Below, piece by piece: positions 4,638-8,684 of a stretch of 64,000 nt of DNA (positions are counted from its first letter, which is position 1; every line of letters begins with the position of its first letter). Made by a program: the position numbers and the translations under genes. The notes under the pieces are model-generated. The model saw nothing but the letters and a program-made list of their open reading frames with translations, ran no database searches and was not told the DNA's origin. Source of the stretch: Escherichia phage 310Ecol104PP; sequence record OR062946.1. One strand, given 5' to 3'.

Positions 4638-4654
4638 GTTTTGTGAAAAATTTT

Positions 4655-4684
4655 TGAAATAAAAAAGGGAGCCCGAAGGCTCCC
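4655..4684 (-). terminator. rho-independent terminator (minus strand)
   Basis: GC hairpin gggagcccgaaggctccc followed on the minus strand by a T-run; immediately 3' of the nucleotidyltransferase gene. Confidence 0.6.
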
Positions 4685-4686
4685 TA

Positions 4687-5700
4687 TCATTTATAATAAC
4701 TTCGGTGGTTTTCAAGATAGACCTTCTCAAGGAAGTCATCCCAGAAACTCATGTCTACTGTTTTAGGCATACCGTTCTTAGAAGCTTCAGTAGATGCTGC
4801 TTCTACTTGATCGACCACATCTTCCAAAAACTCTTGAACTGTTTTAAATGGATGTTTACCCAACTTCACGTCGAGAATAAATGGAGCATCTTGAAGTGGA
4901 TAGACTAAGTCACCAGTTTTGTAAATTTCCAATAGTTGGAGTCCACCACGACAAGCATGACTTAGTGCTTTCCAATCAATGCCTTCATTGGCTTCGGCCT
5001 TACGAGCACGTTCACCGTATTCAGCATCTAATTTGTTCAGTGACTGCTTAAGCTCAATAAGAGAAAGCGTTGTCTGATATTTACGACCCAACACAGTGTA
5101 GAACGTTTGTGGGCCTGTTTTCTCATGATTATGGAACACCCATTCACAGAATTCGTTTTCTGGAAGACGATGCTTAATATCTTCAACTTTAGTACGACGC
5201 TGCTTAATGGAACCGTCTTCTTGGTAATCAACCCATTGCTCAGGGATTTGATTAACTACTTTCAATACATCACGTAATGCAGCCAAACGAGAACCCTTGA
5301 CGCCGTATTTAGAAGCTTGCTTGCGGACATATCCTAAATATGATTTCATGTTAGTCGTATAAAAACGAGAACGGTTGTCTTGAATAAACTTCCACACATC
5401 AGGCAAATCGGATTTAACCACTAGTTCAGGTGGAGTGTGAAGCATATCCAACGCTACAGTTTCACCATCTGCTGCTAATTTAAAGAAATATTTAAGACTG
5501 TATAGTTCATGGTCAATATCATCTTTAGTGTTTTTAGATGATGTATTGTTAGTATTTTTACTCATATGCTCTTTAACATTTCCGATAAGAATATCACGAG
5601 CAGGAGGAACAAAGATTTCTTTAAAATCTACATCAGATTCTGGGGTAGAAGTTCCATAAAGATGACTACCAAAATAGCTTTTCATTACTGTTTTCATCAT
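4687..5700 (-). CDS. Pol-beta superfamily nucleotidyltransferase-fold protein
   Basis: N-terminal motif YFGSHLYGTSTPESDVDFKEIF (GS ... DxD) with a downstream acidic residue (ALDML); 337 aa. Confidence 0.6.
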   Translation of the reverse strand: MMKTVMKSYFGSHLYGTSTPESDVDFKEIFVPPARDILIGNVKEHMSKNTNNTSSKNTKDDIDHELYSLKYFFKLAADGETVALDMLHTPPELVVKSDLPDVWKFIQDNRSRFYTTNMKSYLGYVRKQASKYGVKGSRLAALRDVLKVVNQIPEQWVDYQEDGSIKQRRTKVEDIKHRLPENEFCEWVFHNHEKTGPQTFYTVLGRKYQTTLSLIELKQSLNKLDAEYGERARKAEANEGIDWKALSHACRGGLQLLEIYKTGDLVYPLQDAPFILDVKLGKHPFKTVQEFLEDVVDQVEAASTEASKNGMPKTVDMSFWDDFLEKVYLENHRSYYK

Positions 5701-6158
5701 TCAGCCTTATATTCAATAACAGGACATACTTTAGCTTTACGAGCTTTTAAAAATTCAACGATAACCGATTTCTTGGGTTGAATAGGAGGTAAACCTTTAT
5801 ACGCCCTATCAATATTTTCTACGTGTAAAGCATAATCCTTTTTCCATTTATAATCTTTATATTTTTCACGCAAATGTGCAGGAATAACAAATGAACCGAT
5901 AATAAGTAAAACAACCAAAAGCGCAAGTATAAATGCTGATGGAAGCAAAGTCCATAAACTACCAAAAATAATCCAACGTTGTAGGCTTTCTGCACAAATA
6001 ATTGTTAGCCCTACGAGTATAGCACATCCAAAAATAGAAACGAAAAATGTAGGAATGGCAATAGACCAAAAATATGCGCACAGTGTCTTAGGTCGTTGCC
6101 ATTCATCGTTAAACAATTTGAATAATTTATAGTGCCAAGAGTTTTCATTAATAATCAT
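5697..6158 (-). CDS. two-pass transmembrane protein (153 aa)
   Basis: Two long hydrophobic helices (FWSIAIPTFFVSIFGCAILVGLTIICA; LLPSAFILALLVVLLIIGSFVIP); stop overlaps start of the nucleotidyltransferase gene. Confidence 0.55.
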   Translation of the reverse strand: MIINENSWHYKLFKLFNDEWQRPKTLCAYFWSIAIPTFFVSIFGCAILVGLTIICAESLQRWIIFGSLWTLLPSAFILALLVVLLIIGSFVIPAHLREKYKDYKWKKDYALHVENIDRAYKGLPPIQPKKSVIVEFLKARKAKVCPVIEYKAE

Positions 6159-6160
6159 AA

Positions 6161-6682
6161 TTATCCTTTCATTGAAGGCGTAACGGTTGTTAAATACTTA
6201 ATCATAGCTTCAGCTTCTGATTTTGATAGTGAAATTTCTTCACCGTTTTGGCGAATAGAAACAAAATCTGGATGACGATCACCACCAGCTTTTAAAACAC
6301 ACATATAAGTATCAGCTTCGCCTTCAATATTTGAAATGATTGAAGCAGTTCCACATGAATGCGGTTTTTGATAAATCAATACAGCTTTTCTTCCACCATT
6401 TGACTGTTCATAGGCTTTTAATACATCAAGCAAATCAGTTCTTTTATCAATAGCTAAGATGTTATTTTCATCTTCAATATTAAATCCTTCGGATACTTCA
6501 TAAAGAGTTACCCATAAATCACCGATGTCAATAACAGCATTTACTTTTCCACGGCTTTCAAGAGTATGACAAATTTTCTTGATTTCGTCATAACTCATTT
6601 TAATAATATCATCTCCTTGACTAAGGAAGATGTCATTTTTAAATTCAACACGAATTAAACCGCTTCCACTTGAAATAAACAT
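6161..6682 (-). CDS. hypothetical protein, paralog A (173 aa)
   Basis: C-terminus SKSEAEAMIKYLTTVTPSM resembles C-terminus of the adjacent ORF. Confidence 0.5.
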   Translation of the reverse strand: MFISSGSGLIRVEFKNDIFLSQGDDIIKMSYDEIKKICHTLESRGKVNAVIDIGDLWVTLYEVSEGFNIEDENNILAIDKRTDLLDVLKAYEQSNGGRKAVLIYQKPHSCGTASIISNIEGEADTYMCVLKAGGDRHPDFVSIRQNGEEISLSKSEAEAMIKYLTTVTPSMKG

Positions 6683-6688
6683 ATTTCC

Positions 6689-7243
6689 TCACTTTGAAAT
6701 CATAGTTGGAATAACAGAATCAAGATAAGTCTTTAGTGCAATAGCTTCGTCTTTGGTAAATGTGACAATATGTGCTCGAGAATCATCAATTTGACGAATA
6801 GTTAAGACATCTCCATCTTCATAACATTTTGATACGTTTAAAACAGTTTCATCATTCTGATTGCAAGCGTTAGTAATAATAGCATTGCAATTTTTAAACC
6901 ATTTTAAACTATGTTTTCTTTCATTAGAATAATAAAAATATTTAATCTTATCTATAAAACTATCCCAATGGATAACTGATAAGCATATTGACTCGCTTTC
7001 AATATTAAATCCTGGGCATGAAGAATAAAAATGAATTTTATGCTCATCATTAATGCTTACAATTTTATCAGTATAAGGATTTTCAATTTGGGTTAAATGA
7101 ATGATTTCACTAGGCGTAAAATATAACATATCGTCTTCTTGTGTCAAACGATACATATTATTTACTTTTTCTATAGCCAATTCACCAAAAAGTGAACTAA
7201 CTTCTAATACTAATCGTTTCATATTAATCCTTTTTATTGGCAC
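6689..7243 (-). CDS. hypothetical protein, paralog B (184 aa)
   Basis: C-terminus TKDEAIALKTYLDSVIPTM resembles the adjacent 173 aa ORF. Confidence 0.5.
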   Translation of the reverse strand: MPIKRINMKRLVLEVSSLFGELAIEKVNNMYRLTQEDDMLYFTPSEIIHLTQIENPYTDKIVSINDEHKIHFYSSCPGFNIESESICLSVIHWDSFIDKIKYFYYSNERKHSLKWFKNCNAIITNACNQNDETVLNVSKCYEDGDVLTIRQIDDSRAHIVTFTKDEAIALKTYLDSVIPTMISK

Positions 7244-7502
7244 GAATTTGTTCTAAAATTTTAGAGTATTCCTTTGTATCAGATTTACGTACAATCGATA
7301 CACTATACGGCATACTATCGGTGTCTTTTATAAAGCGTTCCAAATGACACTCTAATAAAATTTCTGGATTATAAATCGTGTACATCAAATTACCTGTTGC
7401 TCCACGATATTGACAGATTTCTACTGATTGAACACCATTCCATAATTTTGTTAAGACCAAATCACCTACTTCTAATTTAGGAAAGCCCATGTTATTCACC
7501 AA
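7224..7502 (-). CDS. hypothetical protein (92 aa)
   Basis: ORF in early array. Confidence 0.4.
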   Translation of the reverse strand: MVNNMGFPKLEVGDLVLTKLWNGVQSVEICQYRGATGNLMYTIYNPEILLECHLERFIKDTDSMPYSVSIVRKSDTKEYSKILEQIRANKKD

Positions 7503-7677
7503 TTAAAGTTTCAATATAAGAATCAAGATTTACTTTAGCTTCTTCCATAAGAGTTTTGTATTTAATCTTGTTAGCATGTCCGGAGAAAGCTGATTCATCA
7601 ATAACTGTTGATGTATGAACAGCTCTACTATACGTCTCAATTAATTCTCTTAATTTAAAAGCCTGCTCACTTGTCAT
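7492..7677 (-). CDS. small hypothetical protein (61 aa)
   Basis: ORF downstream of an early promoter module. Confidence 0.35.
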   Translation of the reverse strand: MTSEQAFKLRELIETYSRAVHTSTVIDESAFSGHANKIKYKTLMEEAKVNLDSYIETLIGE

Positions 7678-7808
7678 TACATACTCCTTTGAATCATATC
7701 AATAATATTGTTCACCAGATTATAGGTAAACATTGGGTAATTATATTGAATCATCACATATATAACAAACAAAACTTTCATTCTCTTCTCCTTGACAGTT
7801 GACAAGAT

Positions 7809-7840
7809 TACTATACCATAACCTTGCCAACTTGTAAACC
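7809..7840 (-). promoter_or_regulatory. T4-type early promoter (minus strand)
   Basis: gtaaac at about 7834-7839 and ctatacc near 7811. Confidence 0.45.
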
Positions 7841-8004
7841 GTTAAATGTTGTTTTCAATAAAATTCTGAAGCTTTGTGTGAGCATCAACCATGATTTTCA
7901 TTTCTTCCTTTGCGAAAGCTGTACCTCTTTCCCGAGCAGAATACTCATAGTCAGAAACTGCATTAGCATATTCTTCAATTAGCTTCATTAAAAACATCTG
8001 CTTT

Positions 8005-8199
8005 TCAGTTTTCATTATTCCACCTAATCATTTCAAGATATTGAACTAACTTAGCTTTAGATTTATCCAAATCCTTTTTAGCTGCTTCTATACCGTCGTA
8101 TGAATATCCTTCACAATGCTCAACTGCTAATTGATATGAATCTATTTCAATATCACGTGCTAATTTAATGATTTTTTCAAACTGTTCGCGTGTTAGCAT
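8005..8199 (-). CDS. small hypothetical protein (64 aa)
   Basis: ORF in early array. Confidence 0.4.
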   Translation of the reverse strand: MLTREQFEKIIKLARDIEIDSYQLAVEHCEGYSYDGIEAAKKDLDKSKAKLVQYLEMIRWNNEN

Positions 8200-8201
8200 A
8201 A

Positions 8202-8405
8202 TTAAACTCTCGTATTATGATCGATAATTTCATCAAGAAACATATCTAACGCTTCTAAAGCATTATCAACTTTAGTTTCAAAGTCTTTAATGCCTTTATT
8301 CGAAATACCCGATGAATACCAAGCAAAGTCAATCAGCTCTTCATCTGCTTTACGAATTGAAGCCACTAATTCCTTGATTTTATCTGCTTGCTCTATACTA
8401 ATCAT
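8202..8405 (-). CDS. small hypothetical protein (67 aa)
   Basis: ATG at 8403-8405 (MISIEQ) preceded by GGTGGAA. Confidence 0.4.
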   Translation of the reverse strand: MISIEQADKIKELVASIRKADEELIDFAWYSSGISNKGIKDFETKVDNALEALDMFLDEIIDHNTRV

Positions 8406-8659: not shown

Positions 8660-8684
8660 TGAAAAAAGTCTCCCGAAGGAGACT
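8660..8684 (-). terminator. rho-independent terminator (minus strand)
   Basis: Hairpin agtctcccgaaggagact followed on the minus strand by a T-run; 3' of the 128 aa ORF. Confidence 0.55.

Follow-up and report, generated by a model that had tools for sequence, protein, structure and literature searches.

The minus-strand genes at 6161..6682 and 6689..7222 of the window, which is the whole 64,000-nucleotide stretch of Escherichia phage 310Ecol104PP DNA (OR062946.1) that we analyzed, form a tandem pair of mobD.1-family paralogues. Taken as a whole, the observations are probably best explained by such a pair, by the loss of part of it in phage T4, and by an accessory protein role for paired structural units, which we put forward as a proposal. 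The first-pass annotation had described two adjacent paralogous open reading frames (ORFs) resembling each other in a C-terminal segment. Both ORFs are present on the minus strand, at 6161..6682 (173 aa) and 6689..7243 (184 aa from a GTG), they contain the peptides cited (SKSEAEAMIKYLTTVTPSMKG and KDEAIALKTYLDSVIPTMISK), and they are adjacent with 6 nt between them. The upstream gene, hereafter copy A, more likely starts at the ATG at 7222 (177 aa) than at the GTG at 7243, which would add seven codons, because this ATG lies 4 nt past the stop of the preceding gene, has an AAGGA motif on its 5′ side, and coincides with the start annotated for JLBYU31. The downstream gene, copy B (RB32ORF097c type), starts at an ATG, and its ribosome-binding site (GAGG at 6687-6690) overlaps the stop codon of copy A. 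Both copies are intact and each has a ribosome-binding site.

The similarity extends well beyond the C terminus. Pairwise alignment, proposed with the first-pass annotation as a check against insignificant full-length similarity, gave a significant match (BLASTP, residues 3-171 with 15-181, 27% identity, E=1e-11). In Smith-Waterman alignments tested against 1000 shuffles, the whole proteins scored z=17.2. The N-terminal halves taken separately still gave z=10.8 (with a BLASTP E value of 1.3e-7) and the C-terminal halves z=7.6 (E=4e-6), and no shuffle equaled the real score in any of the three comparisons. The C-terminal similarity first noticed is therefore real, but it is one part of a whole-length homology. 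Both proteins also match the same two Pfam families nearly end to end, i.e., T4_y05I_N (PF24449; 129.8 bits for A and 114.8 bits for B, gathering score 24.9, model positions 1-2 to 98 of 99) and T4_y05I_C (PF24448; 75.3 and 82.2 bits, gathering score 27, positions 1-2 to 69 of 69), as well as PHROG 1502 (E=1.3e-80 for A and 2.8e-66 for B). Only the shortness of the motif originally quoted speaks for a chance match between unrelated ORFs, and this extremely improbable reading is refuted by the full-length E value, the shuffles, and the common Pfam and PHROG membership.

Copy A is the mobD.1 orthologue, and copy B is an anciently diverged second copy. T4 MobD.1 (UniProt Y05I), which falls in the same Pfam models (PF24449, E=3.5e-43; PF24448, E=1.6e-20), shares 83% amino acid identity with copy A and, like it, lies upstream of the nrdC.11 side at the corresponding place. 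Copy B, at only 28% identity to T4 MobD.1, also consists of these two domains and matches both models over their full length. T4 differs in carrying one copy and in lacking the downstream membrane-protein gene, since mobD occupies that place. Copy B is the same gene as RB32ORF097c and RB14ORF98 (96-97% amino acid identity, same position), with no material difference. The paralogy is already known: it was noted by the RB32 and RB14 annotators, the RB14 GenBank record labeling the copy B gene "similar to mobD.1," and the two copies belong to one Pfam/PHROG family. Comparable sets of diverged duplicates adjoining a conserved gene occur elsewhere in T4-like genomes, namely alt/alt.-1/alt.-2 and motB/RB69ORF010c (Nolan et al. 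2006, PMC1524935), but these sets have known activities, e.g., the ADP-ribosyltransferase Alt, unlike the A/B pair. No functional study turned up in literature searches on mobD.1, y05I, nrdC.11, or the Pfam and PHROG accessions, which retrieved only a list of homing endonucleases, a paper on genome reduction, and an RlaP preprint. Neither NCBIfam nor PADLOC gave a match to copies A and B or to the tudor and membrane proteins described below.

The window belongs to a Tequatrovirus and is 100% identical to Escherichia phage JLBYU31 over positions 5600-7600; the pair lies in the variable tk-nrdC region of this genome type. All neighboring features considered here are on the minus strand. Immediately upstream of copy A is a Phage_tudor-domain gene (7224..7490; PF24144, E=2.3e-40). 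The gene corresponding to RB32ORF096c (5697..6158; PHROG 944 "membrane protein," E=1.2e-49) starts 2 nt past the copy B stop and is followed by nrdC.11 (4687..5700), which encodes an RlaP-family Pol-beta nucleotidyltransferase (Pfam RlaP, E=3.1e-11; PHROG 388), in line with the assignment of T4 NrdC.11 to the RlaP family (PMC12776372). We predict a transcription unit DUF7438-tudor-A-B-membrane-nrdC.11, which a sigma-70-like promoter candidate at 7810..7838 (TTTACA-17-TATAGT, extended TG) could drive; this candidate is a consensus match only, and promoter-like matches in the region are at chance level (28 versus 24 +/- 5.5 expected). The unit likely ends at an intrinsic-terminator-like hairpin at 4666..4685 (8-bp stem with 6 GC pairs, followed by a T-run), making nrdC.11 its last gene. 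From 5600 to 7900, the minus strand contains no match to the late-promoter motif (TATAAATA) or to a MotA box. A strong sigma-70-like match was also seen inside copy A (7147..7120).

Comparison with T4 shows where the reference phage departs from this arrangement. By blastn, homology to T4 falls in blocks at 7220..6664 (91% DNA identity) and 5701..4652, and together with the junction alignments these delimit a segment (5702..6663, minus strand) that is exchanged in T4 for the mobD HNH homing-endonuclease cassette. The replaced segment comprises copy B from codon 7 on and the entire membrane-protein gene. T4 still keeps an identical copy B ribosome-binding site, its ATG, and its first six codons; this remnant is a 23-codon ORF (MFISSG...) that runs into mobD-cassette sequence and whose TGA overlaps the mobD ATG. 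The two-copy arrangement is ancestral to the T4 state, in which the mobD cassette removed copy B after codon 6 along with the membrane-protein gene.

The distribution of the two arrangements points in the same direction. Copy B is found at ≥90% identity in about 428 phage records and T4-type mobD (≥95% identity) in only 47, and the usual arrangement in Tequatrovirus (about 430 phage records) is the pair followed by the small membrane-protein gene and nrdC.11, with A and B both full length and preceded by ribosome-binding sites in hundreds of genomes. RB27 and RB14 carry two copies, and RB69 and JS98 carry one. Within Tequatrovirus, copy B orthologues share 88-97% identity compared with 27-28% between A and B, which argues that the split is old. 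In a neighbor-joining tree of the C-terminal domains, copy B fell outside a 100%-supported clade of Tequatrovirus and Mosigvirus mobD.1, and the split therefore predates the divergence of these two genera. These results, with the same-strand, full-length homology, bear out the old divergence suggested in the first-pass annotation. Its description of the pair as accessory holds as well: T4 does without copy B, and T4 mobD.1 is dispensable since a T4 deletion spanning nrdC.11-mobD.3 is viable (PMC9825161).

An old tandem duplication is not the only origin that would produce this pattern. Copy B might instead be a xenologue, i.e., a distant homologue recombined in from another T4-like phage beside the resident mobD.1, which we judge to be an unlikely alternative. 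The distance between A and B (28%) is like that between the mobD.1 genes of different genera (34% for JS98 versus T4), the tree places copy B outside the clade formed by the T4-type and RB69-type genes, and allele replacement does occur at this locus, as the RB27 A allele is 50% identical with a dS of 1.04 between flanks with a dS of 0.09-0.18. However, a B-type gene was never found as the sole copy at this locus in any phage, the single-copy genera have other lineages, the copy B lineage was seen only in Tequatrovirus-type contexts, and no donor lineage was found. The outcome would be the same as that of an old duplication, and the two origins are inseparable by sequence alone. A further reading, in which the two genes are functionless and decaying passengers of a hyperplastic region and their similarity is only a historical trace, draws on the complete loss of copy B in T4, the viable T4 deletion, a frameshift in RB14 mobD.1 past residue about 127, the frequency of N-only and C-only fragments among database proteins (P0022-P0024, P0036, P0037, P0049, and P0050), and the T2 record AP018813, where both copies as well as the membrane-protein gene are split. 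Sequencing error may account for some of this fragmentation, and an apparent 56%-identical T2 allele of copy B proved to be a tblastn artifact across the AP018813 frameshifts, the fragments being nearly identical to copy B. The dN/dS values (0.11-0.16 for copy B and 0.34-0.43 for copy A) show that both copies are under purifying selection, and these values, the intact genes in the window and in hundreds of genomes, and the conserved position of the C-domain gene described below make decay quite improbable. A natural in-frame hybrid (P0021) joins the N-terminal part of A to the C-terminal part of B; on six contigs it sits, as one gene, with the tudor gene on one side and the membrane gene on the other.

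Beyond Tequatrovirus, the C-terminal unit has a conserved setting. We compared synteny in RB69, JS98, RB27, fHe-Yen9-01, Merlin, Klebsiella 15882-6-5, Aeromonas PS49, and Salmonella CGG4-1, and each of the eight Tevenvirinae genera covered shows the same order: a gene encoding the C-terminal unit (y05I_C), immediately after it the membrane-protein gene, and then nrdC.11. In other Tevenvirinae genera, this unit occurs as a stand-alone protein of 67-87 aa; such genes lie directly 5′ of the membrane-protein gene in Tegunavirus, Moonvirus, Jiaodavirus, Karamvirus, and Gelderlandvirus, and the tudor gene is found upstream of them in Karamvirus and Gelderlandvirus too. The membrane protein has a lysine-rich tail. 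This adjacency could be mere collinearity of Tevenvirinae genomes rather than functional coupling, and T4 has retained mobD.1 without the membrane protein.

Structure prediction, the other check suggested at first pass, was carried out with AF2, and DSSP assigned three beta4(-5)-alpha units to the models of both A and B. The N-terminal domain was modeled with a pLDDT of about 85-93 and the C-terminal unit with only 50-70. Unit 1 aligned with unit 3 by hhalign (E=7.8e-5), and the Jiaodavirus DUF7189 protein aligned to unit 1 (P=1.2e-4). DUF7189 (PF23819) gives a weak match to copy B unit 1 and to the stand-alone C-domain proteins, and its Jiaodavirus gene lies directly 5′ of the y05I_C gene. 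It consists of a single ~63-aa unit without the conserved YLxSVIPTM C terminus, and the relationship stands at a P of about 1e-4 only.

A similar architecture is known from the PUR repeat proteins (Pur-alpha; PF04845; PDB 8cht, 3k44, 5fgo, and 8chw), which likewise consist of three beta-beta-beta-beta-alpha repeats of similar length. There are also single-repeat relatives, which would have to dimerize. Foldseek matched model A locally to repeat III of Pur-alpha (5fgo, 8chw) with prob 1.0 and a TM(target) of 0.66-0.74 (rmsd 2.2-3.0 over 61-62 columns), at an E value of only 0.085-0.15. The C-domain profile aligned weakly by hhalign with PUR repeat I in structural register (score 23.3, P=0.0027; probability 3.9% in the full-length run), covering the G-x-h-h-x-I-x-[QE] strand and the Y-L helix; none of 100 column shuffles reached this score, and the reversed profile scored 9.5. 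Other comparisons gave no such signal: hhalign found none between N-domain units 1 and 2 and the PUR repeats, Foldseek retrieved no PDB structure at E≤0.001 with either model and no PUR protein among the top 50 PDB matches of model B, and the confident N-terminal domain did not retrieve the solved two-repeat PUR I-II domains (3k44, 8cht). Pfam PurA was not matched even at E≤10 by whole proteins or single domains, and a PDB sequence-profile search with the family alignment returned no PUR chain; neither sequence nor whole-domain structure yields a significant match between the two families. The models suggest at most a weak resemblance to PUR repeats, and since the beta4-alpha unit is a simple motif, its origin could be convergent. 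Several other matches were discarded. CsoS1D, the only hit of the PDB sequence-profile search, was at chance level (E=0.38); the top Foldseek matches to Ctf4, the Pob3/SSRP1 PH domains, sliding clamps, polo-box, and arylamine N-acetyltransferase were noise (TM<0.25); and P0069, a repetitive, beta-rich cellular protein of 1572 aa with eight weak C-domain matches, was spurious. Against viral predicted structures, Foldseek retrieved only family members and unnamed proteins.

Do these proteins then bind nucleic acid? The mobD.1 family could consist of PUR/Whirly-like single-stranded DNA or RNA binders, acting as the "putative transcription factor" of the Pfam family description or handling RNA together with RlaP, whose family has been linked to RNA repair; the three Pur-alpha-like units, the Foldseek matches to repeat III (and, more weakly, to MRP1/MRP2), the in-register profile match, and the tudor and RlaP neighbors all fit this idea. 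The composition of the proteins does not. PUR proteins are basic, whereas full-length mobD.1-family proteins are all acidic (pI 4.2-5.8, net charge -3 to -24), and the nucleic-acid-contacting K/R residues of PUR are not conserved in the family, whose conserved residues are mostly acidic or neutral (E18, Q28, D31, E39, N73, and E77) and which has E-D-G-D at the turn where PUR repeats have K/R-G-R-F. Pfam, NCBIfam, and PDB searches also detected no DNA-binding domain such as a helix-turn-helix, zinc finger, or ribbon-helix-helix, and there is no significant PDB match. Together, these observations leave nucleic acid binding of the PUR/Whirly type doubtful.

We return to the accessory protein of paired units. 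According to this proposal, each protein would consist of three ~55-70-residue beta-beta-beta-beta-alpha units, units 1 and 2 forming the confidently predicted N-terminal domain and unit 3 the C-terminal domain. Because a lone PUR-like unit would need a partner unit to complete a globular domain, the C-terminal unit may mediate homo- or heterodimerization (A-A, B-B, or A-B). New copies of the unit, arising repeatedly inside the gene, as neighboring genes, and as the A/B pair, would account for the diversity of the family. Two features guide our view of the role: every member is acidic, and translational adjacency to the gene for the lysine-tailed membrane protein is invariable. We accordingly favor an accessory factor that would be expressed early, be dispensable, and work with this membrane protein and the RlaP module by binding proteins (or by mimicking nucleic acid); a classical DNA-binding transcription factor role is disfavored. 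Taken jointly, these proposed steps are possible rather than probable. More speculative still, and rather unlikely, is that mobD.1/y05I is a phage-specific acidic offshoot of PUR-like proteins that forms, with the membrane, tudor, and RlaP proteins, a conserved Tevenvirinae module. The need of the unit to pair would then explain its repeated duplication within the gene, as the DUF7189 and y05I_C neighbors, and as the A/B tandem. If so, the module might serve, for example, RNA repair or counter-defense at the membrane, and it would have been overlooked because the mobD homing endonuclease displaced half of it from the reference phage T4.

As first stated, the finding of a paralogous pair adds nothing to public annotation, and the follow-up contributes three modest extras. 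The reference phage T4 is the exception at this locus, with copy B and the membrane-protein gene gone and the translation start of B left behind, and the insertion junction is now located for mobD, an endonuclease whose target is listed as unknown. The coupling of the C-terminal unit to the same membrane-protein gene in eight genera points to a conserved Tevenvirinae module. Finally, paired beta4-alpha PUR-like units offer a testable structural hypothesis for the mobD.1 family, for which the label "putative transcription factor" is doubtful.

The window comes from a Tequatrovirus genome that, over positions 5600-7600, matches Escherichia phage JLBYU31 with 100% identity and many T4-like coliphages with at least 97%. 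The two minus-strand ORFs reported by the first-pass annotation are present at 6161..6682 (gene B, 173 aa) and, immediately upstream, at 6689..7243 (gene A, 184 aa counted from GTG), and the C-terminal peptides quoted for them were found in both. Translation of A more probably begins at the ATG at 7222, giving 177 aa; this codon lies 4 nt past the stop of the preceding gene with AAGGA ahead of it, and it is the start annotated in the JLBYU31 record. The ribosome-binding site of B, GAGG, overlaps the stop codon of A. Paralogy and family were both already on record, since the RB14 record names the counterpart of A mobD.1 and that of B RB32ORF097c, with the annotators' note "similar to mobD.1", and since T4 mobD.1, which is 83% identical to A, matches both Pfam models of the y05I family (T4_y05I_N, PF24449, and T4_y05I_C, PF24448). 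The relationship between A and B is thus already covered by GenBank notes, Pfam, and PHROGs. The gene that follows B in the RB14 record, RB32ORF096c, is annotated there as "replaces mobD." The family has very few members: a set of 1.84 billion representative proteins, searched by profile, yielded 30 clusters, about half of which are stand-alone C-terminal-domain proteins of 67 to 87 aa, and all relatives whose genomic source was examined came from Tevenvirinae phages.

A shared C-terminal segment had been taken as the sign of an old duplication and divergence of an accessory gene. That similarity is real, but it is not confined to the C terminus: the proposed pairwise alignment is significant over the full length, with residues 3-171 of B aligning to residues 15-181 of A at 27% identity (BLASTP, E=1e-11). 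Local alignment scores compared with 1,000 shuffles gave z=17.2 over the full proteins; taken separately, the N-terminal halves gave z=10.8 (BLASTP E=1.3e-7) and the C-terminal halves z=7.6 (E=4e-6). Both proteins belong to PHROG 1502 and match end to end T4_y05I_N (114.8 bits for B and 129.8 for A; cut-off, 24.9) and T4_y05I_C (82.2 and 75.3 bits, respectively; cut-off, 27). The split between them is old, since B is only 26 to 33% identical to every mobD.1 lineage and, in a neighbor-joining tree of C-terminal domains, branches outside the 100%-supported clade joining the T4-type and RB69-type genes. Old duplication is therefore supported, although import of a distant homologue, rather than duplication in place, would fit the same identities and branching equally well. 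The accessory character of the gene is consistent with the viability of a T4 deletion spanning nrdC.11-mobD.3 (PMC9825161).

The suggested survey of T4-like genomes found B-type genes (at least 90% identity) in about 428 phage records and A-type genes in 728, the latter as several very different alleles (T4 type, at least 80% identity; RB27/RB69 type, about 45 to 50%; JS98 type, about 33%). RB27, RB14, and the window carry two copies, while RB69 (Mosigvirus) and JS98 (Dhakavirus) have one, ahead of the membrane-protein gene and nrdC.11. In T4, the HNH homing endonuclease gene mobD comes after the only copy, and T4-type mobD (at least 95% identity) was found in only 47 records; the T4 arrangement is therefore a minority state among these phages. 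In a DNA comparison, the window and T4 are collinear over 7220..6664, i.e., A and 25 nt beyond (91% identity), and again over 5701..4652, from the start of nrdC.11 (95.5% identity). The mobD cassette of T4 stands in place of the intervening 962 bp (5702-6663), which hold B from codon 7 and the membrane-protein gene. Base for base, T4 still carries the start of B, from the ribosome-binding site through the ATG to codon 6 (MFISSG). This remnant (L003, NC_000866, 8207-8275, corresponding to window 6664-6690) opens an unannotated 23-codon ORF, MFISSGTDMCYKCKAKLNETKNQ, which is fused to sequence of the mobD cassette and whose TGA overlaps the mobD ATG. Because T4 retains these elements of B, the two-copy arrangement is ancestral to that of T4. 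The overlap of TGA and ATG looks as if translation of mobD were coupled to the start of the gene that mobD removed. The T4 remnant also contains a late-promoter motif close to consensus, TATAAATG.

A and B are part of a predicted minus-strand transcription unit that starts at a sigma-70-like promoter candidate (7838-7810) and continues through a DUF7438 gene (7492-7677), a Phage_tudor gene directly upstream of A (7224-7490; PF24144, E=2e-40), A (6689-7222), B, the membrane-protein gene (5697-6158; PHROG 944), and nrdC.11, which encodes a RlaP-family nucleotidyltransferase, to a terminator-like hairpin (4685-4666). No late-promoter or MotA-box motif was found beside A and B. Two GC-rich perfect hairpins, at 4666-4685 after nrdC.11 and at 8667-8684 after rI.-1, resemble terminators that delimit transcription units; each has a T-run on the minus strand and a weaker tail on the plus strand. 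The region is richer in terminator-like sites than expected (9 seen versus 2.2 ± 1.7 expected). Upstream of A lies a second, larger set of tandem paralogues, four small minus-strand DUF7438 genes of 57 to 67 aa (7495-7677, 7845-8015, 8008-8199, and 8205-8405; Pfam E values of 1e-15 to 1e-17) equivalent to mobD.2a, mobD.3, mobD.4, and RB14ncORF101c, and a gene beside tk in related contigs also matches DUF7438.

In all eight genera examined (Tequatrovirus, Mosigvirus, Dhakavirus, Tegunavirus, Moonvirus, Jiaodavirus, Karamvirus, and Gelderlandvirus), a gene whose product ends in the y05I C-terminal domain directly precedes the homologous membrane-protein gene, with nrdC.11 a few genes on. In the last five, the y05I gene is a stand-alone C-terminal domain, preceded by a tudor gene in Karamvirus and Gelderlandvirus and by a DUF7189 gene in Jiaodavirus; T4 has no tudor gene directly upstream of mobD.1. 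The adjacency to the membrane-protein gene may reflect functional coupling or mere genome collinearity. The membrane protein, which has a lysine-rich C-terminal tail and matched no Pfam family, has a wider distribution (920 phage records) than the y05I family, and T4-like phages of Klebsiella, Salmonella, Aeromonas, and Serratia are among its carriers.

The dN/dS ratio was 0.11 to 0.16 for B and 0.34 to 0.43 for A, compared with 0.13 to 0.26 for the membrane-protein gene and 0.03 to 0.10 for nrdC.11. Between the window and RB27, dS reaches 1.04 in A versus 0.09 to 0.18 in flanking genes on the downstream side, so that the locus must have been swapped for another allele by recombination within the genus; the RB27 allele (L007, 2498-3040, versus window 6689-7222) is 50% identical to A and nearer to the RB69 gene (68%). 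Exchange between the paralogues themselves is shown by a natural in-frame hybrid gene (L010, 3001-3540), which joins the N-terminal 127 residues of A (5' 380 nt) to the C-terminal 50 of B (3' 150 nt) at the homologous position ...DET|DTYMC... On six contigs (among them Logan contigs L010-L012), it is the sole y05I gene at the locus, flanked by the tudor gene and the membrane-protein gene. A and B thus undergo unequal recombination, with a product that is at least tolerated. The genes also decay in places. RB14 mobD.1 (L002, 5584-6122) is frameshifted past about residue 127, after ...NDETV, and only its N-terminal 127 codons are annotated; fragments with only the N-terminal or only the C-terminal part are common in protein databases. 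Frameshifts divide A, B, and the membrane-protein gene of the T2 record AP018813 (L006, 1940-3481) into two or three ORFs each; either the whole module is truly decaying there or homopolymers were misread in sequencing.

Structure prediction, also proposed at the outset, gave three successive beta4(-5)-alpha units for both proteins (AlphaFold2 with the family alignment; mean pLDDT of 74 for each). The N-terminal domain, units 1 and 2, is confident (block means mostly 83 to 93) and the C-terminal domain, unit 3, is weak (about 50 to 70). Units 1 and 3 share a weak but detectable profile similarity (hhalign, E=7.8e-5), and the Jiaodavirus DUF7189 protein aligns weakly with unit 1 (P=1.2e-4).

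Neither model had a PDB match at E≤0.001 by Foldseek. Model A gave local matches to repeat III of Pur-alpha (5fgo and 8chw; probability of 1.0, TM(target) of 0.66 to 0.74, E of 0.085 to 0.15, and rmsd of 2.2 to 3.0 over 61 to 62 columns), and the y05I C-terminal domain aligned in structural register with PUR repeat I in an alignment of human Pur-alpha (identical to PDB 8cht) and its relatives (hhalign score of 23.3, P=0.0027), a score reached by 0 of 100 column-shuffled profiles and compared with 9.5 for the reversed profile. The top 50 matches of model B included no PUR domain, the confident N-terminal domain did not retrieve solved PUR I-II domains, and Pfam PurA gave no match even at E≤10. 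The link is therefore suggestive, not conclusive. Moreover, PUR repeats carry K/R-G-R-F where the y05I family has E-D-G-D, all members are acidic (full-length pI of 4.2 to 5.8; net charge of -3 to -24), and the conserved positions hold acidic or neutral residues. Together with the missing PurA match, these features make the database name "putative transcription factor" doubtful. Tentatively, and with less than even probability, an elementary beta4-alpha unit would pair with a second one, the C-terminal unit would mediate homo- or heterodimerization, and y05I proteins would act as dispensable early accessory factors, protein binding or nucleic acid mimicking, with the adjacent membrane protein and RlaP module. 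Binding of nucleic acid in the PUR manner is a somewhat less likely rival.

Several RefSeq/GenBank records call mobD.1, mobD.3-5, and their neighbors [quoted passage not shown] and the nrdC.x genes "putative thioredoxin." These proteins gave no molybdopterin or thioredoxin family match in our analysis, and the names evidently spread from the T4 symbols mobD and nrdC, not from homology. What is new for the family is modest: T4 retains a vestige of B and has an arrangement found in a minority of these phages, A and B have given rise to a hybrid gene in nature, the association with the membrane-protein gene is conserved, there is a weak PUR-like signal, and all members are acidic.
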